Virus record (IMG/VR): IMGVR_UViG_3300030330_006072
From: an uncultured virus (IMG/VR IMGVR_UViG_3300030330_006072)
Taxonomy: Duplodnaviria > Heunggongvirae > Uroviricota > Caudoviricetes
Length of the DNA stretch: 20,000 nucleotides
Strand: one strand, 5' to 3'
Below the pieces are notes generated by a model. That model was not told the origin of the DNA. It ran no database searches and worked only from the letters and a program-made list of their open reading frames with translations. Position numbers and translations under genes: made by a program. Positions 1,475-18,411 of this stretch are shown piece by piece (the first letter of the stretch is position 1; the number at the start of each line of letters is the position of its first letter).

Positions 1475-2380
1475 CTATTTTCCTAAATATTTTGTGAGAT
1501 CAAATCCGCCACAATCTATTTTAGCATTGCTAATTTGATAATGATGTACAAATCCCGACCAGTCCCCTTTTGCTGCGGGTTCAAAAAGACTATCGTATTC
1601 TTCTACTTTGCCTTTCCCATCGTTTTGTATTGGACATCGCATCGGAATGTCGCATGCATCGGCAATCGCCCACCAAAGAGCCTGTGCAGCTTGAATCTGA
1701 ACATCATAGAAACCAAGATGCTCCTCTAACTCTACTCCTCTCACTTTTCCTGTTACTATTGGTCGTTCTCCAAATCCATTTTTGACGTACCATGATTGAT
1801 ATTTGTCTGCATAGTATGCATTGCTGATTTCTACTCCTACAGAGAAAGAGTTTTGATTTCCCGCATGCCATGCTTGATGTTGAATGTCTAAGGTTTGAAA
1901 AATTGTACCATCATTATCTATAAGAAAATGTACAGATATCCCTCTATCATCTAAAACTCTTTGACAAGAAGCAGATGATAAGCACACATCCCAATGATTG
2001 ACGAATAGTTTTATATGTCGATCGGGGCCAACTTGTTTTCTGTAGCATCCTTCTTTGGCCTTTAAACCATCATCCTCATCCCACAAAATAACCTTATCCC
2101 AACGTATAGGGAAAAACTCCCCATTGTATACAATGTGATTTGTGTCTCGACTTGACGTTCGAGGTTCCCAAGAGGATATTTCTGCTTCTCTATCCGTAAA
2201 GATTCGACGAAAGGTTTGCATACCTACCATTCCATCCCCTGTTAATCCTTTGGATTTTTGATATGCTATAATGGCATGTATTAATTCCTCATCATGGTGC
2301 TTAAAGCCAAACCACGAAGGCTCCCAACCAAATTTGTTAGATGAATTGACATTGTATTTAAGAATTTTAGATATGTTCAT
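1475..2380 (-). CDS. Endolysin: N-terminal peptidoglycan-binding domain + N-acetylmuramoyl-L-alanine amidase (Amidase_2/AmpD-like)
   Basis: PG-binding-1-like AIIAYQKSKGLTGDGMVG. Amidase_2 motifs VNH, SVHFLIDNDGTIFQ, AWHAG, NSFSVGVEI (catalytic Glu), VHH and KIDCG (His/His/Asp-or-Cys Zn ligands). Confidence 0.92.
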   Translation of the reverse strand: MNISKILKYNVNSSNKFGWEPSWFGFKHHDEELIHAIIAYQKSKGLTGDGMVGMQTFRRIFTDREAEISSWEPRTSSRDTNHIVYNGEFFPIRWDKVILWDEDDGLKAKEGCYRKQVGPDRHIKLFVNHWDVCLSSASCQRVLDDRGISVHFLIDNDGTIFQTLDIQHQAWHAGNQNSFSVGVEISNAYYADKYQSWYVKNGFGERPIVTGKVRGVELEEHLGFYDVQIQAAQALWWAIADACDIPMRCPIQNDGKGKVEEYDSLFEPAAKGDWSGFVHHYQISNAKIDCGGFDLTKYLGK

Positions 2381-2434
2381 GGTACACCTTTTTGATATAC
2401 TATATTATATTTGTGTAAAATATTGGGAGAAAAA

Positions 2435-2764
2435 ATGGCAATTATTCAAAATACTATTCGAAGCGCACAAGCATCCGCAACGAATACAACAAGCGTAGCC
2501 GCAAGCTTGGCACTACCTCAAAATGCACACACTGTTATAATATACAATCCCGATGGAACAAACAGCGTGTATGTGGCGGAAGGTACTGCGTCGGCTAGTC
2601 CAATATCTGTGGCTCAAGCTTTGATTGTTCCCGCAAACAGCAGTGTAACGTTGGGTATTGGTACGCAAACCATGAGAGGGAATCCCCTAGGGGATTTTAT
2701 CTTTAGCACGTCTGCGGGATCGATATCGGTCACAATAACCTATATTTGTACTAATACCATCTAA
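2435..2764 (+). CDS. Small beta-rich putative virion protein
   Basis: Start moved to ATG 2435 behind GGGAGA (2425-2430). 109 aa of alternating hydrophobic strands (HTVIIYN, SVYVA, LIVPANSSVTL, ISVTITY), suggesting a beta-sandwich. Confidence 0.65.
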   Translation: MAIIQNTIRSAQASATNTTSVAASLALPQNAHTVIIYNPDGTNSVYVAEGTASASPISVAQALIVPANSSVTLGIGTQTMRGNPLGDFIFSTSAGSISVTITYICTNTI

Positions 2765-4566
2765 TGCATAGACGATTCCCATACCCTTTTTTCCTCACTG
2801 GAGAATTAAGAATTGGTTCTGGTTCTGGAGGAAGCGGATCGGCACTTGAAGTAAAAGATGAGGGTGTAACCATAGACTCTAATGTCACTGTCCTTAATTT
2901 TATTGGTGCAGATGTCCAAGCTTTGTCGGGTGGATCTGGAATTGTATCTATTTACATTCCGCCTCCTTCTTTTGCGTCTCATTGGACGACAAGCGATGGA
3001 ACAACAAACGGAAGTGTATCTGAGAGTATTAGTCGATCAACTGCACGTATATCAACACCTACAAGCGAGGGAAACCCCTTCTCTACTGGAGGGTGGGCGG
3101 GAACAAATCAAAGTTCATCCCTAAACACTACCGTTACATTTACAACTGTATCGGGACAGGCTGTAACAGGATTTGGGGGCAACTCTTCTTTTACGATTAA
3201 TGTATACGATGCGGATGGAACGAGTGTTTTAGCAACATACACTACCCCCTCCTTAACAGGGAATGGAACAAATACGTCTGGTTCTGGTTTTATATCGGTT
3301 ACTCTTTCTGGATACGGTGCAGATACAACAAGGTTCAAAGCTGTACCCTCTATCTCGGTACAAATTAATAATATATTGAATGCAAATTCTCGATCTGGAG
3401 GAAGATATCATGTGGTTGCTATAATGACTACTGATGCAGCAACCGATGGAACAGGGCCATATACATACACGCAAACAGCGGTGTTTTTAGATTCGAACCC
3501 TACGACTCCTTCTATCGGTGGAACCACAAGCATTGCCGAAACAGGCGGATCAGTGACCACAAAACATCTAAGTGGGATTGAGTATTACACAACAGGATCG
3601 AGATTTACAATCGATGTTACAGACATTGACCAACTGAATAGAAATACAGCGAGGACGACGAATAACGTGCAAATTACAGCAAGTAATTATGGAATTTCGA
3701 ATCTCAATCAAAGCCCGTTTGGAACAGGGTCGGGAAATTTTAGCGGATGGACGAATGCATTTGATCAAGACAATGTCAATTATCAGAATACAGCAGCATC
3801 GATATCAAGCTCCAACTTTAGATATAGAGGAACAGGAGCATCTGCCTCGGCAACTCCACGAGATACGTGGGCCTCTGGTTCTACCCAAACATCATCCAAC
3901 GCTTCTATATTAGTAGACACATACGGAACAACAAGCTCGGATTTATCAGAAAGTTTTGATGATGAAAATCGAAGACAAACGAGTAATTTTAACACTGGCA
4001 ATACTGCGGGAAATTGGACTTCTGCAAACTCTCTTGTAGGTGGTGAGGCTCTAGTCTTGGGCGGACAGCTATTGGTTCCCAATCAAGCGACATTGACAAA
4101 CGGCTCCACCAATAGCGATTTTAGCTCCTATTCTCCGACAATAGGAGGCGCAAACCCAAACTATACTGCTCTTGGTGCTCCAGCATCTTATTATCGCACA
4201 ATCGTCGATTCTACTGGCCTTAACCGATCATCATTTACTATCGTGTTCTCTGGTAGTTTTGTTTCGAATGCAACGAATGATTTAGCCAATGAAAATTTAA
4301 AAATCTTTATTCGTAGACGTGCAAGCGCAAATGGTGGAAATGCGGGCTATAATACTGCTTTTCCTTTACTTGTGCATGGAGCACTATATAACTTTGCTGC
4401 TTTTGATGATGGTGTAAACAACGGTCAAATTCGAGAGGCATCTAGCTCTGGAAATACAGTCAATTGTACTTTTGGAGGCTTTACGTGCGAGAACGGATTT
4501 TTTATTCAGATTGAGATTGCCAATACAGCTATTAAACTAAGTAGTTTTACGGTTACATTTTTCTAG
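2764..4566 (+). CDS. Ser/Thr/Gly-rich beta protein, putative fibre/spike-type structural protein
   Basis: 600 aa, TAATG coupling. N-terminal LEVKDEGVTIDSNVTVLNFIGADV resembles a motif I recall from phage fibre proteins. Composition is typical of virion proteins. Confidence 0.65.
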   Translation: MHRRFPYPFFLTGELRIGSGSGGSGSALEVKDEGVTIDSNVTVLNFIGADVQALSGGSGIVSIYIPPPSFASHWTTSDGTTNGSVSESISRSTARISTPTSEGNPFSTGGWAGTNQSSSLNTTVTFTTVSGQAVTGFGGNSSFTINVYDADGTSVLATYTTPSLTGNGTNTSGSGFISVTLSGYGADTTRFKAVPSISVQINNILNANSRSGGRYHVVAIMTTDAATDGTGPYTYTQTAVFLDSNPTTPSIGGTTSIAETGGSVTTKHLSGIEYYTTGSRFTIDVTDIDQLNRNTARTTNNVQITASNYGISNLNQSPFGTGSGNFSGWTNAFDQDNVNYQNTAASISSSNFRYRGTGASASATPRDTWASGSTQTSSNASILVDTYGTTSSDLSESFDDENRRQTSNFNTGNTAGNWTSANSLVGGEALVLGGQLLVPNQATLTNGSTNSDFSSYSPTIGGANPNYTALGAPASYYRTIVDSTGLNRSSFTIVFSGSFVSNATNDLANENLKIFIRRRASANGGNAGYNTAFPLLVHGALYNFAAFDDGVNNGQIREASSSGNTVNCTFGGFTCENGFFIQIEIANTAIKLSSFTVTFF

Positions 4567-4575
4567 GTTTTTATT

Positions 4576-5211
4576 GTGGCTTTTTTCCCCGATCAATACA
4601 AAGTATTTATATCAGAGTCCAACAATCAAATTATTTTATCGGCTCGTATATCGGAAGATGTCGCTGAGACATACTTTTTGAGTAAAGATCAATGTCTCCC
4701 TTTTACAGAGGCTACCGATTTTTCGTCTTGGGCGGGGTCGGACTCTATCATGGGAAAGATCGCCAATAATGAAGCGACATTGGCCTTGAGAACCAGTGAA
4801 GGAGTAAAGTATTATCGGAGTGATGCGGGAACGCTCCTTGTTATGCAAGCTCAAATGAGAACATCCGTTGCATCATTAAATGATGACGTGTCAGACTCTG
4901 GAGGAAATGCAGCACACCACGCAGATATAAATATAGACTATGAATATATTAGACAAATAATAAAATTTGAACTGAGTATGTTTAAAGCGGAATTAATGGC
5001 GGATTTGGCTCAAAGTAAGCCAAGAGAACCAATTAAGCCTACTCTCACTAAAACTTTAATAAAACCCCCTTCCAGTGTGTATGTACCATCGAAAATTACT
5101 AATTCAAACTTAGAAGGGAATATTAATATAGAATCCTCTACAAAGGATTCTAATATAGAAAACGCTTTAGAAGCGTTAAAAAATCTGAGAAAACAAGGAG
5201 ATAAAAAATGA
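4576..5211 (+). CDS. Hypothetical protein coupled to the actin-like gene, candidate adaptor/regulator
   Basis: 211 aa, GTG start. Globular N-terminus, Pro/Lys linker, C-terminal amphipathic helix NIENALEALKNLRK. ATGA overlap with the actin gene. Confidence 0.75.
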   Translation: MAFFPDQYKVFISESNNQIILSARISEDVAETYFLSKDQCLPFTEATDFSSWAGSDSIMGKIANNEATLALRTSEGVKYYRSDAGTLLVMQAQMRTSVASLNDDVSDSGGNAAHHADINIDYEYIRQIIKFELSMFKAELMADLAQSKPREPIKPTLTKTLIKPPSSVYVPSKITNSNLEGNINIESSTKDSNIENALEALKNLRKQGDKK

Positions 5212-6182
5212 TCGGATTAGACATAGGAACAATGAACATTGTTTGCAGCACCAAAGATCCCTCATCTGGAGAAATATCCACAAGAAGGATTCGTGATGCA
5301 TTTTTAGATTTGCCTATTAGCGCAAAACGTATGCTCAAAATGGGATCGAGCAATTTTATCCAAAGAGACGACCTTCTTTATATTATTGGAGATCAAGCTT
5401 TGGAGGTAGCGAACATCTTTGGAAGAGAGGCAAGAAGGCCATTAAGCCAAGGACTTATATCCAACTCTGAATCGGAAAGTCTCGATATACTGGCATTTAT
5501 CATCCAATCATTGATCGGAAATGGGAACGGAGAGAATTGTTTTTACTCAATCCCCGCTAAACCGATTGATAATCCATCTAAAGATGTGATCTACCATAAA
5601 AGGGTATTTGAGCGTATCATAGCAGAATGCGGATATAAACCATGTGCCAGTAATGAAGCAATGGCAATTGTGTTTTCAGAAGCATCAGAGACGCAATTTT
5701 CCGCTATATCGTTTTCATTTGGCTCTGGAATGACGAATGTAGCGATTTCTCTTAATGGGATTGAGTGTTTGACTTTTTCAATTCAAGTGGGTGGAGACTG
5801 GATCGATAAAGGAGCCTCCCAAGCCCTAGGAATGACGCAAGCAAGGGCCTGTTCAATCAAAGAGAAAGGAATAGACTTGATGAATCCAAGAGGAAGAGAA
5901 CAAGAAGCCATCGCCTTTTATTATCGAGAACTCATCGAGTACACACTAGAGCAAACGCACAATGAATTGAAATCAAGAGCGCAAAAATTCTCTTTGTCTC
6001 GCCCAATTCCTATAATTGTATCGGGTGGAACCAGTACAGCCGTTAATTTTGATCTCTTCTTTCAATCGGTATTTGAGCGTTTATCCGATAAGTTTCCTTT
6101 CAATGTAAGTGAAATCAAAAAGGCTAAAGATCCCTTTAATTCAGTATCCTTGGGCTTACTTATACAATCATTGCAAGAATAA
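5208..6182 (+). CDS. Actin-like ATPase (MreB/MamK-like, viral)
   Basis: Phosphate-1 IGLDIGT, RRPLSQGLI (cf. MreB RPLKDGVI), connect-1 SNEAMA, phosphate-2 SFGSGMTNVAI, VGGDWID, adenosine motif IIVSGGTS and C-terminal KDPFNSVSLG (cf. EDPLTCVARG). RBS ACAAGGAGA. Confidence 0.9.
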   Translation: MIGLDIGTMNIVCSTKDPSSGEISTRRIRDAFLDLPISAKRMLKMGSSNFIQRDDLLYIIGDQALEVANIFGREARRPLSQGLISNSESESLDILAFIIQSLIGNGNGENCFYSIPAKPIDNPSKDVIYHKRVFERIIAECGYKPCASNEAMAIVFSEASETQFSAISFSFGSGMTNVAISLNGIECLTFSIQVGGDWIDKGASQALGMTQARACSIKEKGIDLMNPRGREQEAIAFYYRELIEYTLEQTHNELKSRAQKFSLSRPIPIIVSGGTSTAVNFDLFFQSVFERLSDKFPFNVSEIKKAKDPFNSVSLGLLIQSLQE

Positions 6183-6191
6183 GGAGGAAGT

Positions 6192-6488
6192 ATGGAAGAT
6201 TTTGAAATTAGAGTCACGTTTCAATATGAACAACCTACTCAAAAATATAAGATGGATTCAATTAAAAAATCTATTAAAGAGTTTCAATCTAAGTATTGCG
6301 ACTTAGCCCGATCGTATCAAGGTTTCTGGATCGATCAAGGGTGGTATGCAATGGAAGACGATAAAAACAAAGCTCGAATCGTGAAACATGACATTGTGCT
6401 CTCTTTTGTTACAAAAGAAGGAATGCTATCTTTCAAGGCTCAAGTTGAAAATATTAAACCTCAAAACGTTTCATTGACGATAATCTAA
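6192..6488 (+). CDS. Hypothetical protein
   Basis: 98 aa, AAGGAGG RBS, TAATG coupling to the next gene. Confidence 0.8.
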   Translation: MEDFEIRVTFQYEQPTQKYKMDSIKKSIKEFQSKYCDLARSYQGFWIDQGWYAMEDDKNKARIVKHDIVLSFVTKEGMLSFKAQVENIKPQNVSLTII

Positions 6489-7528
6489 TGGGTTTTTCCA
6501 ACCAAGAAAGAATTAATATGAATTCCGCTGCCCTTGCAGCGGGTGTAATTGATGCCAATTCAAGTGCTCAATGGTATGAAAAGCAATTCGGATTCTCTTT
6601 TATTCTGAATGCTAATACGGTCTGGACGCAATTATCATCCATTCCAACTGCTGCAAACTTAACGACAGCTAGAAACAACGCAACGGCAAACCCAACTTTG
6701 ATCCAAGACCTTAGCCAAGCATCAGACGCAAAAAGGCTCACCAAGGTAGCGGGTACGAATAACTCGACGTTTGCCGCATACTCGACGTATAACGACACAT
6801 CGAGTACTCTTTTAAAAAATTGGCTTCTTCCCCAATTGGTTCCTCAAGCCTCTGGTGCTCCTTCTAATGGTTATTCCATCAATCTATACAATGGAGATCC
6901 CGACAGTGGAGGAACTCTCATTACAACAACGGTAGGCCAAACAGGAACAGGAACGACAAAAAGTGTCGGATGGATTTGGAATTATGCTTTAGGGATTCTC
7001 CTTCTATCCGATGACTTCTACTCTCAAAGTGGCATCTCTTCTGCTTCCTTTGATCCGTATGTGGTAGGATTCCGATATATCGGCAATACCGCCTCAAGTG
7101 GAGTATCGACAACCGCAACAAGAACGACATCATCGGGTGTTGCGGATGAAACAATAGCCATAGGAGACGTTCTACGATTCGCCTTGAACGGAGAAGCGGG
7201 ACTAACAGCGGGTAGACTGGTAAAGGCCAATGCAACGTCTGTAAATGGATCTGAGGTGGTTGGAATAGCGACAAGTGGGGGATCTCAAGGGGCAAGCATA
7301 AACTATGCAACATCTGGCGAAGTCGCTGTAAAATTTGGCTCAAATCCCGCTACGACCGACAATGGAAAGAAGGTTTTTTTAAATACAACCAGTGGACAGG
7401 CCACATTTACGGCTCCTACAGCATCGGGCCAAACGATAGTGCGCCTTGGGCATATAAACGGTGCAACAGGAAGCACAAGCACACCAACCATTGTTCTAAA
7501 TATAATGGTTGTGATGCAAATAGGATAA
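6488..7528 (+). CDS. Putative virion structural protein with C-terminal beta-tulip/cement-like (DUF2190-like) domain
   Basis: 346 aa, S/T/G/A-rich. C-terminal pattern ADETIAIGDVL...GRLVKANA...VVGIA...VFL...SGQ...TAPT...IVRLG resembles phage decoration domains. Confidence 0.6.
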   Translation: MGFSNQERINMNSAALAAGVIDANSSAQWYEKQFGFSFILNANTVWTQLSSIPTAANLTTARNNATANPTLIQDLSQASDAKRLTKVAGTNNSTFAAYSTYNDTSSTLLKNWLLPQLVPQASGAPSNGYSINLYNGDPDSGGTLITTTVGQTGTGTTKSVGWIWNYALGILLLSDDFYSQSGISSASFDPYVVGFRYIGNTASSGVSTTATRTTSSGVADETIAIGDVLRFALNGEAGLTAGRLVKANATSVNGSEVVGIATSGGSQGASINYATSGEVAVKFGSNPATTDNGKKVFLNTTSGQATFTAPTASGQTIVRLGHINGATGSTSTPTIVLNIMVVMQIG

Positions 7529-7562
7529 GCGATAATATGATTTTAAATATATTAAGTTACAT

Positions 7563-7580
7563 AAAAAACTCGAGTTTTTT
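7563..7580. promoter_or_regulatory. Perfect 18-bp palindrome AAAAAACTCGAGTTTTTT
   Basis: Lies in the intergenic gap between the structural operon and the SOD-containing gene. Possible operator or weak terminator. Confidence 0.4.
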
Positions 7581-7636
7581 GTATAAAGATTTTTGTGAAG
7601 CATGTGAATGTGATCCTTGTGATTGTGGGTGGGGAC

Positions 7637-9454
7637 ATGACTAGATTTAAATGGCTACCATTAGATGATGTCGTGAGAAGCATTCCTGTTATGGATAAAT
7701 ACAACGTCTCCAGAGTAGCCAGAGGACTCGATGACTCGGAGCAAACAAAGGAGGGATTCATAGAGGCTTATATCGCTGTAAAGGGCGACAAGAACAAAAT
7801 GATGACTCGTATCACTGGAAGGATGCGTAAAGGCCAAGAAGTCGAAACGTGGGCCGATAGAAGGAATCAATTTGTTGCTCGACATCTAAAGCAAATGCGC
7901 CAAGGTGACACGTACTCTAATGGATGGTTGCCAAGTGGAGAGCCAACACGACGACACTTAGCCTTAATCGCTTGGGCCTACTCTCCCTCTCCTAAAAGAC
8001 TAAAAGACTGGCTCAATACACAAGAAGCACCTTTGACAAACCCTAAAACGATAAGAAGTGCAATTCATCGTATTGATTCACAAGGTGTACATGAAAAGAT
8101 CGGATTCGTCGTATTCTCTGATTCATCTAAGGGCCTAAAGATCGACGTAGACGTGTCTTCACTTCCAAATGGAGAACATGGTTTTCATGTACATGAATAT
8201 GGTAGCATAGAGCCAAAAATGAAGGATGGCAAGATGGTATCGGGATTGAGTGCGGGCCAACATTACGATCCCTTGGATGCGGGCTTTCATGGTTCTCCAA
8301 CAGGTTGCGGACATCTCGGTGATCTTCCTTTTATCACTGTAAAGAACGGAACCTCGAAACAAACTGTATATGCACCTAGACTGTCCGTAAAACAGATCGA
8401 GAATAGGGCCATCATTATCCATGAAGGAGGGGATAATTACTCGGATACTCCTTTACCCAACGGTGGGGGAAAATCTCGTATTGCGGGCGGTATTATCACG
8501 AATGGCTGTCCGTATTGTGTATCGAACCCTAAGTTTACCGCAAAGAAGCTTGAAAATATATTGTATGACGTTTACAGAAGGGGATCGGCTGCATGGGCAT
8601 CGGGTGGACATCGGAAATTCCAAACCCCGCAGTCGTGGGGACATGCGAGAGTAAATTCTTTCTTGGTTGGAGGCAAAACCTTTTTCACTGGAGACAAGGA
8701 TCTTGCTAAAAAGCTACCTACAAAGCTGTATGAAGCGATCTATAAAGAAAGAACATACGATCCCCCAAAATCTCTAAAGTCTGATGACAAAAAGGTGATT
8801 AGGGACTCCAGAGGGCTAAAGATACCCCAAAAGTATTTGGATGGATTCAAAGGAAAAGATCGGGATAGTCGAATCAAAGAGATAGACAAAAGACGTAGAG
8901 AGTATTCACAAGCTTTAAAAAAGTATGGTGACGAAAAAGATTTTCCTCAAAAGGTTTTAGATCAAATTTATTCTCCTTGGGACAGCGATAAAGGAACATC
9001 TAAGATTAAGAGTCCGTATACAATCGAGGCACATAAAAGAGGATTCACAGGCTCCAGACTGGAGAAATCTAAAGAGGCGATAAACTATTACATGAAGAGA
9101 AAGAACCCTTCTAAGTCTATGAGTGTAAGCGATAAGGATATAATAAACGCTCTATCGGAGCGTTTTAAGAGTCTAAATAATCAATTGCCCAAGTGGGAAG
9201 ATATCAAATGGAAGAAAGGAAAAGATTTTGATATGGATGGGACGTGGGAAACAGAGATCGGGGGCAAGATATATGATATTTATCGAGATGCCACAAGTGG
9301 CATATATTCTTCTGCGGTCTGGTATTTAGGACGAAAATCAGAAAAAATATTTAAGATATCTAAAAGCGACATCTTAGATATACTTGGATACACCAAGAAA
9401 GAAGCTACAAAAAAGCTTGTGGAAAGGATAAAAGATCGTCAGTCTAAAAAGTAA
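7637..9454 (+). CDS. Multi-domain protein: unknown domain + Cu/Zn superoxide dismutase (SodC-type) + DUF5824-like module + unknown C-terminal domain
   Basis: Likely start ATG 7637 behind GGGTGGGG. The SOD domain (~8045-8500) keeps HVH, GQHY, FHG, GHLGD, IIH and the catalytic Arg (SRIAG). VYRRGSAAW...TPQSWGHARVNSF...GKT...DKDL resembles DUF5824 as I recall it. The SOD call is strong, the other domains are less certain. Confidence 0.85.
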   Translation: MTRFKWLPLDDVVRSIPVMDKYNVSRVARGLDDSEQTKEGFIEAYIAVKGDKNKMMTRITGRMRKGQEVETWADRRNQFVARHLKQMRQGDTYSNGWLPSGEPTRRHLALIAWAYSPSPKRLKDWLNTQEAPLTNPKTIRSAIHRIDSQGVHEKIGFVVFSDSSKGLKIDVDVSSLPNGEHGFHVHEYGSIEPKMKDGKMVSGLSAGQHYDPLDAGFHGSPTGCGHLGDLPFITVKNGTSKQTVYAPRLSVKQIENRAIIIHEGGDNYSDTPLPNGGGKSRIAGGIITNGCPYCVSNPKFTAKKLENILYDVYRRGSAAWASGGHRKFQTPQSWGHARVNSFLVGGKTFFTGDKDLAKKLPTKLYEAIYKERTYDPPKSLKSDDKKVIRDSRGLKIPQKYLDGFKGKDRDSRIKEIDKRRREYSQALKKYGDEKDFPQKVLDQIYSPWDSDKGTSKIKSPYTIEAHKRGFTGSRLEKSKEAINYYMKRKNPSKSMSVSDKDIINALSERFKSLNNQLPKWEDIKWKKGKDFDMDGTWETEIGGKIYDIYRDATSGIYSSAVWYLGRKSEKIFKISKSDILDILGYTKKEATKKLVERIKDRQSKK

Positions 9455-9482
9455 AAGGAGAAGGGATTGGAACCCTTCTCCT
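9446..9482 (-). terminator. Rho-independent terminator-like hairpin
   Basis: AGGAGAAGGG (9456-9465) pairs perfectly with CCCTTCTCCT (9473-9482). A U-rich tail (TTTTACTTTTT) follows only on the minus strand. Confidence 0.65.
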
Positions 9483-9540
9483 AGGTAGAAAACAGTACAA
9501 AGGAAAACATGTCTTCTACAACCAAAAATCAAACAGAAAG
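9450..9540 (-). ncRNA. Candidate small RNA (two stem-loops, anti-SD loop, intrinsic terminator)
   Basis: On the minus strand: TATAGT at 9548-9543, then stem GTAGAAGACA/TGTTTTCTAC (G-U pair on this strand, A-C mismatch on plus) with loop TGTTTTCCTTTGTAC, then a 10-bp hairpin followed by a U-rich tract. Confidence 0.5.
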
Positions 9541-9629
9541 ACACTATATAATTACAGCCTAAAATAATTATACGTATCGCTCTTGATAATAACTTTAATT
9601 ATTATCGTTGGCAATACAAGGAGAAAAAA

Positions 9630-10481
9630 ATGCAAGAAAAATATACCGTAAATTTAATGAAAGATGGAAGTATAGTAGGGAATATTGGTTCTTATCCATC
9701 CAAAAGAGAAGCGCAAAGCGTAGCTTTAGAGTTTAATGTAAAGTTTAAGAGAAGGGCGGGAAAGGCTGTTGTAACCGAATTAAAAGAACAAAAAGAAGAG
9801 GAAAAGCCAAAGCCAAACCCTAGACGTAGTACTCAAGCTCTATTCTTATCTCGATCAAATCAAGAAGAGTCAGAGGAGGAGTCAGAAGAGGAGTCAGAAG
9901 AGGAGTCAGAAGAAGAATCGGAGGAAGGGTATCAATACTCCGAAGAAGAAGAGTCAGAAGAAGAACAGAGAACACCTATTTTTAAGCCCCGACAACGACT
10001 AAGAGAGCGACGAATAGAGAACAAGCCTAAGAGTCGATATAAAGTGCCACATAAGACAGTCGATCGTCCGTTTATGTTTGGGTATGGAGCACAAAACACA
10101 AACATTGTTCTCATCGATGATGAAGGATACGTGGCTTTAATAGAGAACAGAGCAATAAGAGGCCCAAAGTGGATCTTTATGTCAAGTGAGATAGAGAGCC
10201 ATGATTCCCCTCAAGAGAAGATGATAGAAGATGTTGAAAGCGCATCGGGCTACAAGAATGAGATTATATCTCGAATAGAAGCTTCCTATATATCGGGAAA
10301 GAAGATTATCTTTTATTTGGCTCGCCCTACACGAATGGTTCACGACCCAAGAGAAGAAATCGCTTGGGTTAGCCAAGATGAAGCATACGATTTATTAGGA
10401 AGAAATATTGGGCAAAATAAAACAATCTTAAGAAGAATTTTAGATAAAGCTTTCAGTATTTGGAGAAAAAAACAATTATAA
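9630..10481 (+). CDS. Protein with acidic repeat linker and C-terminal degenerate Nudix-fold domain
   Basis: RBS ACAAGGAGA. Basic N-terminal domain ends KPNPRR, then (ESEE)n. C-terminal NIVLIDDEGYVALI...W...SGY...FYLA...IAWVSQDEAYDLL follows the Nudix layout, but the box residues are substituted. Confidence 0.7.
   Translation: MQEKYTVNLMKDGSIVGNIGSYPSKREAQSVALEFNVKFKRRAGKAVVTELKEQKEEEKPKPNPRRSTQALFLSRSNQEESEEESEEESEEESEEESEEGYQYSEEEESEEEQRTPIFKPRQRLRERRIENKPKSRYKVPHKTVDRPFMFGYGAQNTNIVLIDDEGYVALIENRAIRGPKWIFMSSEIESHDSPQEKMIEDVESASGYKNEIISRIEASYISGKKIIFYLARPTRMVHDPREEIAWVSQDEAYDLLGRNIGQNKTILRRILDKAFSIWRKKQL
9867..9926 (+). repeat. 12-bp tandem repeat (GAGTCAGARGAR, five units, the last degenerate) encoding ESEE
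   Basis: Units gagtcagaggag, gagtcagaagag, gagtcagaagag, gagtcagaagaa, gaatcggaggaa. Confidence 0.9.
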
Positions 10482-11094: not shown

Positions 11095-11616
11095 ATGAGT
11101 ATTTTAGAAGCAATAAAAGAAGAGTTTAATTATCTTCGTGGGAATTATGGTCTTGGGACAGCAATTGCGTATCTACTGGTTCCTACTATTGCGCTCCAAA
11201 CAGAGCAAGAAGGACTCAGTACGGAAAATCTATTAAAGGAGCTTGACGTATCCCCTAGGGACATCCTTCTTAAACAGCAAGAAATTCTTTTTAAGGTGAA
11301 AACGTCAAATGTTGCTCAGTTTATCAACACGTTGGAGTTTTTGGTCGGACTCGATATGGATGCACAATTTCTACCAGAGACGACAAAAGAACAGATAAGA
11401 GGCGAATTAGCCAAGTTGAATCCTCAAGCATCGTGGAGATCGTTGTATCCATCCCTTCAAGTGTTGGCTATGCGTGATGGCATCCTCGGATCGAATGGAT
11501 TAAGCGACTCTACGGCCTTGTTGGGTGCGTATCTTAATAAAAACAAGCCATTACCTCTCGGTTTCATTTTTGGGGGTGTTACACTGGCATTACTAGCTTA
11601 TACAGCTTTGAGGTAA
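11095..11616 (+). CDS. Tail-anchored membrane protein (paralog A)
   Basis: 173 aa, starts directly after the upstream stop. Ends LGFIFGGVTLALLAYTALR. Confidence 0.8.
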   Translation: MSILEAIKEEFNYLRGNYGLGTAIAYLLVPTIALQTEQEGLSTENLLKELDVSPRDILLKQQEILFKVKTSNVAQFINTLEFLVGLDMDAQFLPETTKEQIRGELAKLNPQASWRSLYPSLQVLAMRDGILGSNGLSDSTALLGAYLNKNKPLPLGFIFGGVTLALLAYTALR

Positions 11617-11618
11617 AT

Positions 11619-12053
11619 ATGAAAGCATTACAAAAATTAGGAATGGAACAATGGGAAAACGGACAGTATGACGCTTTTCTGACTACACTTTCAACCATGC
11701 TCGCAAGAGAAATGAGTACGACAAAAAGTCCCGAAGAAGATGATATATTAGAATGGGACAATGAATTGTATGAAGTTGCTAGGGATAGTGGAATTACAGA
11801 TTTGAGAAAGCAACTTAAAGTGCTTAGTTTGGTTCACGATCCCGATGACTCGCAGCAAACAGAGCAAAAAGCTAAAGAGATTTTTCTTGTCTTTCTTCCG
11901 ATTTTAAAGAAAGCGACATATTTTGAGTCGACTCGGCCGATGGTTCCCAAGACATACCAATTCTTGAAACAGGTTCTTATGGGGAAGAACAAGCTGGGAT
12001 TTATTGTCGGTGGTCTTACAGTCGGATTACTGGCTTATGCAGCATTGAGGTAG
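11619..12053 (+). CDS. Tail-anchored membrane protein (paralog B)
   Basis: 144 aa. Starts LGMEQWENGQYDAF and ends LGFIVGGLTVGLLAYAALR. Confidence 0.85.
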   Translation: MKALQKLGMEQWENGQYDAFLTTLSTMLAREMSTTKSPEEDDILEWDNELYEVARDSGITDLRKQLKVLSLVHDPDDSQQTEQKAKEIFLVFLPILKKATYFESTRPMVPKTYQFLKQVLMGKNKLGFIVGGLTVGLLAYAALR

Positions 12054-12055
12054 GT

Positions 12056-12433
12056 ATGAGTATAGAAGAAAGAGGAAGACAAGAGTGGAAAAACGGACAG
12101 TATGAAGCTTTTATGCGTACACTGACCGAATTAACATATAGAGAGTTAGCATCTAAAGGTTATTCAGAAGATCAATCCGATCAAGTTTTTATGGGCATGT
12201 TTAATGCAGTAGGCGGTAAAGACTTTATAGACCAAGTTAGGGATGCTGAAAAAACAGATAACAAGGAAAAAGCAAAGGGCCTTTTTGAGGCCCTTAATAA
12301 GATAAATCAAACTGATGTTAATCCTATGACATCTAAGTATTTAAAGGAGGTTCTTAATCCTACAAATCCTTTACTTAGAATTGCTATCTTCTCCGCTGTT
12401 ATCGGTGGTACGCTCCTTTTCTTGAGAGGCTAG
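12056..12433 (+). CDS. Tail-anchored membrane protein (paralog C)
   Basis: 125 aa. Starts RGRQEWKNGQYEAF and ends LLRIAIFSAVIGGTLLFLRG. Confidence 0.85.
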   Translation: MSIEERGRQEWKNGQYEAFMRTLTELTYRELASKGYSEDQSDQVFMGMFNAVGGKDFIDQVRDAEKTDNKEKAKGLFEALNKINQTDVNPMTSKYLKEVLNPTNPLLRIAIFSAVIGGTLLFLRG

Positions 12434-13447: not shown

Positions 13448-14041
13448 CTATGTTTGTTTGTAAAATAATTCTAGTTTTTGGGACAGTGGTGGAAAAATAA
13501 TCGACGACACTTGGGCCATGTTCATCGCTATGGTTCGTGCTGTTTCGCTATTTCCCTCCCAACATCTTAATATTGCCTTTGTAAGCCCCCCACATCGATC
13601 TATGAAGGCTAAAACAGCGGTTCCGTTGTCTTCTATGCATTCAAGAAGAGCCTCCGATCTATTGGGCTGTTCTCCTTCTCCACCAAGATTGATAGACCAA
13701 GTTTCTACAAGTCCTCTTAGTGAGGTGGCTCCTTCTCTGGCGATAGCTTCATAAGCGGCCGAGAGCGTAGCATCGGAGTTTTGGGTCGGTATTTCTGGAT
13801 CTTGATTGAGCTTTAGGAAGTCTTCTGGTTCCAAGTACGATTCTTTTTTTTGCATATACGTAGGGGTATCTTTGTACATTTCGCTCAAGGGTCGTTCTTG
13901 ATAGGATGTTTGAGGCGGAAGAACATAAGGACTTTGTTGTTTAATTTCTTTCGTACTGATCGAGATAGTATCTCCTTCTACAGTCATGGAAACACTGCCC
14001 TCTAACTCTATACGGACATCTCCAACAAATAGCTTTATCAT
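13448..14041 (-). CDS. Hypothetical protein
   Basis: 197 aa, TAATG coupling to the 641-aa gene. Confidence 0.8.
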   Translation of the reverse strand: MIKLFVGDVRIELEGSVSMTVEGDTISISTKEIKQQSPYVLPPQTSYQERPLSEMYKDTPTYMQKKESYLEPEDFLKLNQDPEIPTQNSDATLSAAYEAIAREGATSLRGLVETWSINLGGEGEQPNRSEALLECIEDNGTAVLAFIDRCGGLTKAILRCWEGNSETARTIAMNMAQVSSIIFPPLSQKLELFYKQT

Positions 14042-15966
14042 TATTCACCCTCGTAGTACTTTAAATCTTCTGGTACAATCGGACTTGCTTGGAGCTTTTG
14101 TATAATCGCAGATGACAATTGGTCGTTTGCGCCCGCCTCCTTGAGAGCAGCCAAAACAGAGACTTCGTTACAATAATGATATATAGAAAACTCATTCGTT
14201 ATTGCCGTTGCAATTAACTCTTCCCACAATCCCTCTTCCGTATTAGGTAATTGATTAACTAATTTTCGAAGGGCTTTTCTCGCACTTCTTTGTACTTTTA
14301 AGTCTAAATTAATCTGCTGTTTTGGTGATGATTGTTGTGATTGATTGGATTGTAATGGATTTGGCATCGGCTGCTGTTGCTGCTGTTGCTGCTGTTGCTG
14401 TTGCTGTTGTTGGGGCTGTTGAGACAAGGCTGCTTGTGGATAGGAGGGAACAGGAACATTGGGATTCATACCCGCATAAGGGTTGTATTGTGGCTGCATT
14501 GGTGCTTCTGATGATGCTTTGGCCTCGATACCCGCTTTCATAACTTCCGCAGCATTCCCCGCTATTTTTGTCAATGCTCCAATTACCTCTGATGATGTTG
14601 TCCCGCCATCGCCATTCATAAATCTATCTATTAAATCTCTTGGTTCAATCCCAAAATCTTCTAAGGTAGACTTTGCCTCTTTTATGATCCCTTTTAGTCC
14701 GCCAAGTCCGCTTTGTTTTTGATTGTCAAACTGGAGTAATTGTAGCTGCATCATGCGCTCTTGGTGCTCTTTATCCCTCGTAGCGGCCATTTCCATTTCT
14801 TTGAGCTTTAATTCATGCTGCCTTTGACGTTCTTGTTCTCGTTCTTTGGAGTCTCTTGTCTCTCTTAGTCTTTTCTCCTCGGCTTCTTTTCTCCTATCTC
14901 TTTCTCTACGTTCATATTCTATACGCTCTAACTCTCTTTTTTGCTCCCATTCTTGGCGCATTTGCTGCATACGCTCTTGTGCCTCTTGTCTATCTCGATC
15001 TCTCCGTAGTCGCTCCTCTTCCATTCTTACTCTGGCTTCCAGTTGGATCATTTCAAGACGTTGCTTCATATCTTCCTTCTCTTGTTGTCTCCTTAGATTA
15101 TCTTGAGACATCATTCGTTCGTAGAAGGTTTTATCTTTTTGAATTTGCTGTTCCGCTTGTTGAGTGGCCCGATCTCTTTCAGCTTGTAAAACCTCTAGGT
15201 TGGACTGAAAGAACGCAGCCATCGAGTCTTGTGCTTGTCTATTGCGCTCACTTTCTTGTCGTATCATAGCCTCGTGTCGTTTTGCATCTGCATCCATCAT
15301 TCTTTGAGATATTGTCTCTACTCCTGTTGCGGCATTGGAGGCCAAGTCTATCCGTTCTTGGGCCATTTGGGACATAAGTTGTTGTGTTCGCCTACGTTCC
15401 TCAGCCAAAGCATCTTGAGAGGCTTGTAGCGTTCTATTCAGCATTTCAATCATCGACTGATGCACACTGCTTTCTGGATTTGATTGTGGGACTAAAGCAT
15501 CTTGTTTTGACATTTTCTTTAGTAATGCGTGATGTTCCGAAATAACAAAAGTTATTTCCGATCCTAATTCTGAACCATCTATGTTTAGAGGCCGACATTT
15601 AAAGGTTTTTTTCAAGTCGCCTGTCTTGGGCATTGCGGAAGGGAATTGTCGGATAAAATCCTCTTCCGTTGCATTGGCATCTATGAGTCCTAAACCTGTT
15701 GGAATTCCGTTTTCAATTGCCCAACACCTTAATTGGGTACATTCATTAAAATTTGACGCTTGAGCAAATATAAGAGGAGAGCTTGATCGGCCTTGCATTT
15801 GGGTGGCACTGCTTCCATGTATCGTAGATTGTAGCCTGTTACCGCCTATTGTGGGTGATTCTGGCAATATTTCTTCTCTACCTATCGGTCTAAGTTCTGG
15901 TTCGTCGGAATCCTCATCAAAACCAAGATCGAATAATTCGTCATCCCTACCTTTATTCTCGCTCAT
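14041..15966 (-). CDS. Large coiled-coil/low-complexity protein with polyQ tract
   Basis: 641 aa, RBS ACAAGGAGA. Acidic N-tail, small globular domain, long E/R/K/Q/M-rich helical region, P/Q-rich linker with Q14, helical C-terminal domain. Confidence 0.88.
   Translation of the reverse strand: MSENKGRDDELFDLGFDEDSDEPELRPIGREEILPESPTIGGNRLQSTIHGSSATQMQGRSSSPLIFAQASNFNECTQLRCWAIENGIPTGLGLIDANATEEDFIRQFPSAMPKTGDLKKTFKCRPLNIDGSELGSEITFVISEHHALLKKMSKQDALVPQSNPESSVHQSMIEMLNRTLQASQDALAEERRRTQQLMSQMAQERIDLASNAATGVETISQRMMDADAKRHEAMIRQESERNRQAQDSMAAFFQSNLEVLQAERDRATQQAEQQIQKDKTFYERMMSQDNLRRQQEKEDMKQRLEMIQLEARVRMEEERLRRDRDRQEAQERMQQMRQEWEQKRELERIEYERRERDRRKEAEEKRLRETRDSKEREQERQRQHELKLKEMEMAATRDKEHQERMMQLQLLQFDNQKQSGLGGLKGIIKEAKSTLEDFGIEPRDLIDRFMNGDGGTTSSEVIGALTKIAGNAAEVMKAGIEAKASSEAPMQPQYNPYAGMNPNVPVPSYPQAALSQQPQQQQQQQQQQQQQQPMPNPLQSNQSQQSSPKQQINLDLKVQRSARKALRKLVNQLPNTEEGLWEELIATAITNEFSIYHYCNEVSVLAALKEAGANDQLSSAIIQKLQASPIVPEDLKYYEGE
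14371..14412 (-). repeat. CAG/CAA trinucleotide tract encoding 14 Gln
   Basis: Plus strand reads ctg ctg ttg ctg ctg ttg ctg ctg ttg ctg ttg ctg ttg ttg. Confidence 0.9.
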
Positions 15967-16836: not shown

Positions 16837-17234
16837 AAAGGCACAAGCTCTCTATCTCTTTGGTCGAGAACAGCTAAGGGATCAACTCCCCTTGTCTTAG
16901 CCTCTAAGAGAGACGCAAAGGCTACGATGTGTTCGCAGCATCCATGTGCATAGTATATTTGCTTATGCCAGAGGCAAGAACAGGAAATGGATACGTCGGG
17001 GCGATACTCGGCTGCATAAAGATTGATTGAAACATCGTATTGTTCAATCAATCCTTTATAGATTCCAAGTGTCGGATTGCTCGATTTCCACAAAACGTCA
17101 AATTTACCCTCTTGGAGAATAATCTTTGCTTTTTCAAATCGGCTATGTTCTGCTCGAATCGGTCTGCGCCAAACTTCGTTAAGTTTGGCGACTGTAAGGA
17201 GACGAATAAGTCGTTTTTCTTCATCGCTACGCAT
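16833..17234 (-). CDS. SWIM zinc-finger protein
   Basis: YDVSI...ISCSC-x11-CCEHIVA matches the SWIM CxC-xn-CxH motif with its preceding Y-x-V strand. AGGAGA RBS. Confidence 0.8.
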   Translation of the reverse strand: MRSDEEKRLIRLLTVAKLNEVWRRPIRAEHSRFEKAKIILQEGKFDVLWKSSNPTLGIYKGLIEQYDVSINLYAAEYRPDVSISCSCLWHKQIYYAHGCCEHIVAFASLLEAKTRGVDPLAVLDQRDRELVPF

Positions 17235-18411
17235 TTTGCTCTCCTATCCAATACCAACTATCGGTTAAGGTGGAGGCAACCTTTAATTGCTTAGATGATA
17301 CCAACCATTTCAAAGCCTCATCGACTACTCTTTGAGGTTTTTGTAAGCGTTTGAGGATAGATGCATAATGAACTTTTCCTCCAGTTTGCCCGACAAACTC
17401 GATAACTCTTCTACGCATTCGAGACGAATCATCGGGGGATAAAGTTTCTGAAAGGCTGAACAAAGACTCTATTAAAAATTCTGTAACATAAATTGCTAAA
17501 GTTAATGTTTGCGGTTGTATATCCCATCTTTGACCAAAAGAAGAAAGTCCTTGATCAAAATGCAACAGGTGTGCGATACGAAGACAATGTGCGGGTATAC
17601 GTGTCTTGGCTCCTGTTATGATGTTGGGGAATGGTCTTGTCTGGAGATCATTAAACCAGTGTGTCCAAAGATCCAAAGCTTCCTTATTTGGCCCCTCACA
17701 TACTCCAATACCATTCTGTTTGCGTTGGGATAGGGTAGAGACTAACCAGTCCTCCCCTTTGACTCGTCGGCCTTTATTGGGCCAAGCATCAGTACGCTCT
17801 CGATGTGCATGGATAAAAAAGAATCGACCAAGAAATCCGCCATGCCAGTCTTCTTCCGATGTGTAGGACTCCAAATATTTTACTGCACATGCAGCAAGGA
17901 GCGTTAATCTAGGCTTTTCACATTTTACGGTTTCGCCCGCCTTAGCTCTCTCTTGGGGTGTTCCATCCCAAAGATCGGTTAAGAGAGTCTTTATTGCTTC
18001 TCCGTATCCTGTTTTGGTATTTGAAAAGAAATATCCAAACTCTGAATAGCTAAGAATTTGTGTTGGCTTCTCGGACAGCGATTGAATCAATCCCTCTGGT
18101 GAAGCGGGTTTATCACCTTGGAGACTAGAAGACACTTTGTATAAGATTTTCTTTCCGATAGATAAAGCAGTGGATTTTTGCTCTACCCCGCTACGACCAA
18201 CAACACATCCATAAAATGTCGGAGGAAGAGACGTGATGAAAGGTATCCCCGAATTTGGCGGCATACATACGTTTAGGAGTCCAAGACCAACACATAGGTG
18301 ATAGGCACTTGGAGCCGTTGTTTTTTGACTGGCATAACTAATATACTTACGTAGCCAGCTTTTATCGGGGAGTTTTTGGCAAAACTCCCTAATAGACTGT
18401 TCTTTTATCAT
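17227..18411 (-). CDS. DUF3987/YfjI-like P-loop NTPase (putative replicative helicase) with C-terminal winged helix
   Basis: Walker A variant GRSGVEQKSTA, SPEGL, Walker B variant ILSYSEF, LLTDLWDG, PRLTLLAA, GFLGRF (Arg finger-like). HTH-like C-terminus. RBS ACAAAGGAAAACA. Confidence 0.8.
   Translation of the reverse strand: MIKEQSIREFCQKLPDKSWLRKYISYASQKTTAPSAYHLCVGLGLLNVCMPPNSGIPFITSLPPTFYGCVVGRSGVEQKSTALSIGKKILYKVSSSLQGDKPASPEGLIQSLSEKPTQILSYSEFGYFFSNTKTGYGEAIKTLLTDLWDGTPQERAKAGETVKCEKPRLTLLAACAVKYLESYTSEEDWHGGFLGRFFFIHAHRERTDAWPNKGRRVKGEDWLVSTLSQRKQNGIGVCEGPNKEALDLWTHWFNDLQTRPFPNIITGAKTRIPAHCLRIAHLLHFDQGLSSFGQRWDIQPQTLTLAIYVTEFLIESLFSLSETLSPDDSSRMRRRVIEFVGQTGGKVHYASILKRLQKPQRVVDEALKWLVSSKQLKVASTLTDSWYWIGEQNA

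Follow-up and report, generated by a model that had tools for sequence, protein, structure and literature searches.

The locus considered here raises the question of what a complete actin-like ATPase does among the genes of a tailed phage, and of how any filaments that it might form would be attached to a target. It lies in a 20,000-nucleotide (nt) stretch of DNA, hereafter the window, from an uncultured marine virus of the Caudoviricetes (IMG/VR record IMGVR_UViG_3300030330_006072). The window is phage-like, with a G+C content of 37-45% in 1-kb windows, and the analysis of the locus covered its 25 open reading frames (ORFs). An initial annotation, made from the sequence alone, had described an MreB-like actin of 324 amino acids (aa) with two coupled partners, a 211-aa protein encoded upstream and a 98-aa protein encoded downstream, inside a structural operon. 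The reading that best explains the whole, with a probability of roughly 0.6, is a two-gene filament system in which a Volactin-family actin would work with a dedicated docking adaptor, the 211-aa protein.

The actin-like protein

The 324-aa protein matches the Volactin family of Pfam (PF25216) with 216.8 bits against a gathering cut-off of 35, and the match is full-length, with residues 2-319 aligned to positions 3-319 of the 321 in the profile. The same family is present in all 120 relatives among the matches listed, and a protein-cluster search with the actin returned 1971 clusters. The label 'MreB-like' fails the family test, with 13.2 bits for the Pfam family MreB_Mbl (cut-off 27) and 11.1-17.2 bits for the NCBIfam MreB models (cut-offs 293-515). 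The FtsA models PF14450 (25.8 bits, cut-off 31.8) and TIGR01174 (20.2 bits, cut-off 175.85) are also matched below their cut-offs. The initial annotation was right to see no mreC or mreD beside the actin gene, as neither family is found among the ORFs of the window.

At the level of structure, the best match of a confident model of the 324-aa protein is the MamK filament subunit, followed by BeeR, MreB and F-actin. MamK is also the only match of the family profile to the sequences of the PDB, in which a single-sequence search gave nothing beyond a chance match at E 0.22. The full-length family match, the confident model and the MamK-like fold support the view that the protein is a complete actin-fold ATPase, as initially described, which groups with the polymerising actins and not with the sugar kinases or Hsp70. 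A grouping with non-polymerising members of the acetate and sugar kinase/Hsc70/actin (ASKHA) superfamily had been named beforehand as the outcome that would speak against a filament, and the family search returned Volactin, with the polymerising actins.

The residues of the nucleotide site were compared in 47 viral and 30 Planctomycetota sequences. The D5, G7 and T8 of the phosphate-1 motif, the N149-E150 pair of connect-1 and the glycines G273 and G274 are invariant, so that the phosphate-1 Asp and the connect-1 Glu, already read as retained in the window protein, are kept throughout this set. The phosphate-2 motif reads S-F-G-S-G in the window protein, and the pattern S-F-G-x-G-M-x-N is invariant in 47/47 viral and 30/30 planctomycete sequences. 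The replacement of the phosphate-2 Asp had thus been read correctly, and it is nothing special to the window gene: judged by its invariance in both groups, the Ser is a trait of the clade and not a sign of decay.

The upstream partner and its C-terminal tail

The stop codon of the 211-aa gene and the start codon of the actin gene overlap in an ATGA at 5208-5211, which stands behind an AAGGAG at 5195-5200, in agreement with the overlap described initially. With tblastn, the matches to relatives begin at residue 1 of the 211-aa protein, which supports the GTG start of its gene. A hidden Markov model of the cluster of upstream genes, which have a length of ~213 aa and are found in 73/80 viral loci, matches the 211-aa protein with an E value of 7.8e-14; no Pfam, PHROG or NCBIfam family and no transmembrane-like segment was found for this protein.

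The alignment of the partner family shows an N-terminal domain of ~70 residues, a variable linker that is Pro-rich or coiled-coil, and a tail that is more strongly conserved than any other part. The consensus of the tail runs from P-x-F-I-P-S-x-I through a short acidic segment to A-x-x-A-L-[RK]-x-L-[RK]-K. In the window protein these elements appear as a hydrophobic V-Y-V-P-S-K-I, followed by N-L-E-G-N-I-N-I-E and by an amphipathic basic helix at residues 193-210. The AlphaFold2 model of the protein has strands and helices in residues 1-62, low confidence in residues 65-103 (predicted local distance difference test, pLDDT, below 50), a helix at 122-146 with block values of 82-95 and, after a disordered stretch, the terminal helix 193-210 with values of 76-87 by 10-residue blocks.

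The amphipathic helix that had been seen at the end of the 211-aa protein is borne out by this model and by the helical hydrophobic moment, which is the highest of the protein in the last 18 residues (0.49, a value reached by 2.35% of 2000 shuffles). The mean hydrophobicity of the same residues is -0.35. A high moment, a low mean hydrophobicity and the lack of a membrane-type segment would suit a helix that docks onto a protein better than a membrane anchor. The partner evolves much faster than the actin: in the relative L165 the actin is 85% identical to that of the window, against 55% for the last 87 residues of the partner.

Conservation of the pair in two viral contexts

Relatives of the actin were collected from viral contigs (the best 80 of 89) and from metagenomes (the best 80 of 273). 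Those on viral contigs are 41-58% identical to the window actin, and many of them lie on contigs of 200-500 kb. Two further relatives were found in a phage collection, on records of uncultured phages with lengths of 485 and 595 kb; a megablast search of the window against this collection gave no match. The count of the pairing took in the window together with the viral and metagenomic loci, provided that 900 nt or more of sequence were available upstream. An ORF of the partner family is present upstream on the same strand in 136/136 loci including duplicates and in 110/110 distinct ones, and is directly adjacent to the actin gene (at most 150 nt) in 77 of the 110. Measured to the conserved actin start, the spacing is zero or negative (an overlap) in 10 of the 136 loci including duplicates, and amounts to 1-60 nt in a further 78. 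The stop/start overlap and the same order in 110/110 loci suggest that adaptor and actin are co-transcribed in the window. Of the two partners proposed initially, the upstream gene is therefore conserved across viral contigs in its order with the actin, and the 98-aa gene, which has no relatives outside its own cluster, is not.

The pair is found in two viral contexts. The first, defined by the clustering of ORFs in the 80 loci on viral contigs, has the order ~458-aa gene, ~187-aa gene, ~213-aa partner, actin, ~399-aa gene and ~144-aa zinc-ribbon gene, and no other gene of the window was found in these 80 loci. The window represents the second context, which consists of a 117-aa gene, a 600-aa gene, the partner, the actin and a 346-aa gene. 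Ten loci (L166, L167, L168, L169, L171, L172, L184, L207, L227 and L230) have this order with both flanks, and L164, L211, L228 and L229 have part of it. The neighbours of the two contexts show no homology to each other (15/15 hhalign comparisons at a probability of at most 1.1%), and the adaptor-actin pair is the only element common to both. One subgroup of the first, huge-phage context carries a Dps/ferritin-like gene (PF00210, E 1.4e-10) between adaptor and actin, at 5297-5944 in L055 and in 24 other viral loci.

A maximum-likelihood tree of 79 sequences was rooted on 13 Planctomycetota, a root that is an assumption. The 13 second-context sequences, of which 11 were assigned by full or partial gene order, besides the window and L165 (labelled through its identity to the window actin), form one clade of actins with a support of 100/96, within which two close database relatives of unseen context are nested. 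With this root, the clade is itself nested among first-context sequences, and the split between viral and planctomycete actins has a support of 100/100. In 12/12 cultured-phage records, which are from Shewanella and Vibrio phages and include two RefSeq copies, the 600-aa and 346-aa genes have homologues that adjoin each other without an intervening actin gene. Given this arrangement, the most economical interpretation is a single transfer of the adaptor-actin pair, as a unit, into the 600-aa/346-aa junction, where it has been retained. A recent insertion of a cassette between two neighbouring phage genes was considered and dropped, as the same order is found in 10 metagenomic relatives, which makes the arrangement an old one in the lineage of the window.

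Relatives in Planctomycetota

The scan of cellular genomes, with one genome per species, yielded 317 relatives, of which the best 80 were considered. Three of these, 52-56% identical to the window actin, are phage contigs in metagenome bins, since the whole viral gene set is present on them. Nearly all the others bear the label Planctomycetota, with identities of 37-41%, and some of them lie on chromosomes of 6.6-8 Mb. Furthermore, an actin match above the Pfam cut-off is found in 65 of 151 sampled Planctomycetota genomes.

The neighbourhood was analysed in 30 of the 77 planctomycete loci (L084-L160). In 29 of the 30, a gene of ~283 aa lies directly upstream on the same strand, and its product ends in P-V-D-F-G-G-L-F ... 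L-E-S-N-M-x-N-I-E-V-K-Q-K ... G-G-I-A-A-N-L-A-R-L-K-K-L-K-G-G-G. This planctomycete partner is a long coiled-coil protein with an N-terminus unlike that of the viral adaptor. Its last 50 residues align with the viral tail in hhalign with a probability of 68% and an E value of 4.8e-5, and in a joint alignment (A5) all three elements of the tail are common to both, including the N-L-E-G-N-I-N-I-E stretch of the window. At the level of sequence profiles, the tail of the partner is homologous between phages and Planctomycetota.

A profile of the joint tail, built from A5, matched 789 cluster representatives at E ≤ 0.001 among 1.84 billion. All of the 150 matches listed end at most 30 residues from the C-terminus of their protein, 133 of them within 5 residues, and 144 of the 150 proteins have no membrane-type segment.

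Some further observations concern the cellular relatives. In three planctomycete contigs (G011:C116, G018:C137 and G127:C10), two volactin-family genes lie ~1.4 kb apart, an arrangement that suggests tandem duplication. Some contigs in bins with the labels Actinomycetota, Legionellales and 'uncultured bacterium' (within the group L081-L083, L088 and L156) are probably misbinned phage contigs, given the full viral gene set that they carry. A 'Luminiphilus' contig (L088) has an actin of the planctomycete type, and the member on a 264-kb 'Clostridium' contig (L156) has a long branch and is placed among the viral sequences.

Proposed mechanism and alternative explanations

In the mechanism that we infer, which extends from polymerisation and docking to the cargo and the timing of expression, the 324-aa actin would most likely bind ATP and polymerise into dynamic filaments, and the 211-aa protein would be a dedicated adaptor whose C-terminal tail docks onto the actin. 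The parts of the docking tail would be the hydrophobic stretch, a short segment resembling a strand and the amphipathic basic helix at the end, and the flexible linker would join the filament to the target of the small N-terminal domain. The pair would be expressed from the surrounding operon, and would have been inherited as a unit, with at least one transfer from one phage genome context to another. Phages of this kind probably make actin filaments of their own in the host cell, and a role of these filaments in particle assembly or transport is a matter of conjecture. More broadly, and with odds that we would put somewhat below even, the pair may be an ancient and portable filament-docking module common to Planctomycetota and to a very large group of phages, uncultured and often of huge size. 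It would be kept and moved as a unit because a phage-built actin cytoskeleton organises a late step of infection, such as the gathering or moving of capsids, DNA or assembly sites, as an actin counterpart of the PhuZ spindle.

Several observations weigh against a polymerising actin with a docking adaptor. The adaptor is poorly modelled (mean pLDDT 63), and no fold can be recognised in its N-terminal domain. The homology of the phage and planctomycete tails is based on the one 50-residue profile alignment, with its probability of 68%. In 33 of the 110 distinct loci other genes, for instance the Dps/ferritin-like one, lie between adaptor and actin. With regard to the actin itself, EutJ and FtsA are also among the good structural matches of the model, and the phosphate-2 Asp is replaced by Ser across the whole clade.

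Among the alternatives, the positioning of DNA in the manner of ParMRC or AlpAC survives as well as any, and is nevertheless unlikely. The N-terminal domain of the adaptor would here bind phage DNA, and the filaments would push or position replicating or plasmid-like genomes. The C-terminal helix of the ParR adaptor binds ParM, and the tail helix of the window partner would follow a similar logic. In two relatives, L230 and L169, the block lies near genes for a DNA polymerase, an SbcC-like protein, a helicase and a nuclease, and the order of adaptor and actin and their presumed co-transcription are like those of alpA-alpC in prophage CGP3 (PMC4446434). Against such a role, no repeat array or iteron set was found in 2300-7700, and the initial annotation had likewise seen no adjacent centromere-like array; tandem repeats scoring at least 50 occur in the window only in other coding regions, at 9862-9925 and 14370-14421, and a DNA site could still lie elsewhere in the genome. 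In addition, only 9 nt separate the 600-aa gene from the adaptor gene, the scans of Pfam and NCBIfam gave no DNA-binding family for the adaptor, and the partner in Planctomycetota, a long coiled-coil protein, does not resemble it at the N-terminus.

A non-polymerising ATPase of the ASKHA superfamily, that is, a chaperone or assembly factor like EutJ, Hsp70 or PilM with the upstream protein as its client or co-factor, is improbable to a similar degree. The replaced phosphate-2 Asp would suit it, and so would the presence of EutJ among the top Foldseek matches of the model (E 2.5e-13) and the matches of FtsA type, though these are below cut-off; the family and the fold of the 324-aa protein place it with the polymerising actins. 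Least likely of the three is a takeover of the host, in which the filaments would alter its shape, division or membrane organisation, for example by enlarging or stabilising the infected cell, and move no phage cargo: no such cargo has been identified, the cellular relatives are chromosomal genes of Planctomycetota and volactin influences the rod-to-disk shape change in Haloferax (PMC10869688), but the N-terminal domain of the adaptor is conserved in phages and unlike that of the planctomycete partner, which points to a phage-specific target, and the window adaptor has no membrane segment.

The 98-aa gene and the flanking genes

The 98-aa ORF starts 9 nt after the stop codon of the actin gene, is preceded by an AGGAGG, and overlaps with its TAA the ATG of the next gene at 6488. 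Its product matched only its own cluster (96% identity) among 5.8 billion proteins, in a search that needs shared 5-residue words, and the gene was not found in the 80 viral loci. One contig from an independent run carries it. Of the 10 loci with both flanks, 8 have 10-19 nt between the actin and the 346-aa gene, and in L167 and L230 the same slot holds an unrelated 108-aa ORF (3639-3965) and a 325-aa ORF (9002-9979), respectively, both without a family. The slot that separates the actin from the 346-aa gene is therefore variable: relatives carry nothing there, or unrelated ORFs, and it behaves as an insertion hot spot. By these comparisons, the 98-aa gene is probably a lineage-specific ORFan and not a second partner, and would not be part of the system.

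The genes on either side of the pair had been taken initially for S/T/G-rich, virion-like genes of a structural operon. The composition holds, with an S+T+G+N fraction of 0.48 and 0.43 against 0.13-0.38 in the other 21 ORFs; their virion nature does not follow from the matches. The 600-aa protein belongs to phrog_31482 (E 4e-41) and the 346-aa protein to phrog_33494 (E 2.9e-41) and phrog_9417, all of them PHROGs of unknown function, and the profiles of both proteins matched nothing in the sequences of the PDB below E 0.05. A scan of viral contigs with the 600-aa protein gave no match, and look-ups of both proteins in the Atlas gave no usable lead. The 600-aa gene lies directly 5' of the adaptor gene in 12 metagenomic loci, and the 346-aa gene 3' of the actin gene in relatives with the gene order of the window. 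The N-terminal ~200 residues of the 346-aa protein match the beginning of S14_123 from Shewanella phage 1/4. In this phage S14_122 and S14_123, homologous to the 600-aa and 346-aa genes, are neighbours and are found ~2.7 kb downstream of the gene for the major capsid protein. This adjacency is the sole link of the flanking genes to structural functions. In relatives with the gene order of the window, the block adjoins genes for DNA polymerase A, an SbcC-like ATPase and an SNF2 helicase, and also lies beside genes for a PD-(D/E)XK nuclease, an M23 peptidase and an amidase/endolysin.

Two contigs of run X5, from another study, span the junctions of the locus, the first from the 600-aa gene through the partner to the actin and the second from the end of the actin through the 98-aa ORF to the 346-aa gene; the arrangement of the genes is thus not an assembly artefact of one sample. 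With regard to transcription units, 15 promoter-like sites were found, against 15.8 in shuffles, and without an excess over the shuffles these sites provide no evidence.

Other features of the window

The features of the locus and of the remainder of the window are collected in Table 1.

Table 1. Features of the adaptor-actin locus and of other parts of the window.
Feature	Position	Strand	Match or basis
Putative adaptor (partner) gene, 211 aa, GTG start	4576..5211	+	
C-terminal tail module of the putative adaptor, ~residues 165-211	5068..5208	+	
Coupling junction, AAGGAG then ATGA	5195..5211	+	direct sequence reading
Volactin-family actin-like ATPase, 324 aa	5208..6182	+	
Probable ORFan, 98 aa, in the variable actin/346-aa gene slot	6192..6488	+	
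Upstream flanking gene, 600 aa, S/T/G/N-rich; possibly a virion protein	2764..4566	+	phrog_31482
Downstream flanking gene, 346 aa, S/T/G/N-rich; possibly a virion protein	6488..7528	+	phrog_33494, phrog_9417
Amidase_2 endolysin	1475-2380	minus	Amidase_2
Cu/Zn superoxide dismutase domain and DUF5824 protein, 619 aa	7595-9454	+	
DUF3987 primase/helicase-like gene	17227-18411	minus	

Just 3' of the stop codon of the 346-aa gene lies an inverted repeat (7557-7586) with 15-nt arms that are 87% complementary and perfectly spaced, which may be the terminator of an operon begun near 2411. The 619-aa protein encoded after it combines an N-terminal part of unknown nature with PF00080 (93.6 bits) and DUF5824, and relatives of its parts are found near the actin block in L168, L169, L170 and L213. 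The endolysin gene also has a match to PG_binding_1, which is weak and under the cut-off (19.9 bits against 23).

Farther along the window, a 283-aa protein (9630-10481, plus strand) has an acidic (SEEE)n repeat, with the tandem repeat at 9862-9925 mentioned above. Three small genes in tandem at 11095-12433 on the plus strand (173, 144 and 125 aa) resemble paralogues and have no family match; the 144-aa and 125-aa proteins have in common an N-terminal W-x-N-G-Q-Y-[DE]-A-F motif, and each has a hydrophobic, membrane-like segment at its C-terminus. A 641-aa protein (14041-15966, minus strand) is rich in coiled coils and has a poly-Q run, with repeats at 14370-14421.

Significance

The cytoskeletons that phages are known to build consist of a tubulin, PhuZ, and of a few actins of ParM or Alp type that are tied to DNA. 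A volactin-type actin with a tail-bearing adaptor would add a third system to these, and a widespread one, given the 1971 clusters of the actin and the 789 cluster representatives that bear the tail. The presence of the same module in Planctomycetota, with the actin in 65/151 genomes, would make the tail a concrete candidate for the attachment of little-studied cellular filaments. As the pair is small and self-contained, its function is directly testable without a cultured host. New in this analysis are a second context of the pair among viruses, the grouping of the actins of that context in a single clade, and the recognition of the ORFan slot.

Comparison with known systems

PhuZ, which forms the spindle of nucleus-forming jumbo phages, is likewise a phage-encoded polymer that organises infection, but it is a tubulin and not an actin, and no dedicated tail-bearing adaptor gene is known to accompany it. 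MreB differs from the window actin, which is under every cut-off of the MreB families and has neither mreC nor mreD nearby. MamK of magnetotactic bacteria, the closest protein in structure, is ~16% identical to the window protein, near which there are no magnetosome genes, and Pfam places the latter under Volactin.

The nearest literature on phage cytoskeletons deals with AlpC and PhuZ, besides reviews. No paper on a phage volactin-type system was found in a literature search whose coverage lies outside subscription papers, and none of the volactin papers listed, judged by title and the start of the abstract, is on a phage. A mention of ParM in a huge-phage preprint proved to be just a citation.

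Dynamic filaments have been described in living cells for the namesake of the family, volactin (VolA, HVO_2015) of Haloferax volcanii (PMC10869688), the only member for which they are known. Volactin belongs to the same Pfam family as the 324-aa protein, which matches this family over its full length and well above the cut-off, and a control search found Haloferax volcanii above the cut-off of PF25216. The gene adjacent to that of volactin, HVO_2016, encodes a protein with a disordered linker, a small C-terminal domain and four transmembrane segments, according to PMC12126565. By this description, volactin resembles the window actin in having a neighbouring gene for a linker-bearing protein, whereas the window partner is soluble. 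The two systems also differ in that the window actin is from a phage of a peptidoglycan-walled host, as the Amidase_2 endolysin indicates.

In prophage CGP3 of Corynebacterium glutamicum, AlpA is encoded upstream of AlpC, co-transcribed with it, and binds both AlpC and the DNA upstream of the operon (PMC4446434). By gene order and by this description, AlpC and AlpA are like the window pair in that a virus-encoded actin is preceded by the gene of its adaptor, and since AlpA links phage DNA to the actin, a role in DNA positioning is a live rival for the window pair. AlpA binds a site in its own promoter and is expressed early together with AlpC, whereas the window pair has no upstream intergenic region and no repeats, and sits within a longer operon. 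Taken by analogy in gene order and described function, the closest known kind is the AlpA-AlpC pair of prophage CGP3.

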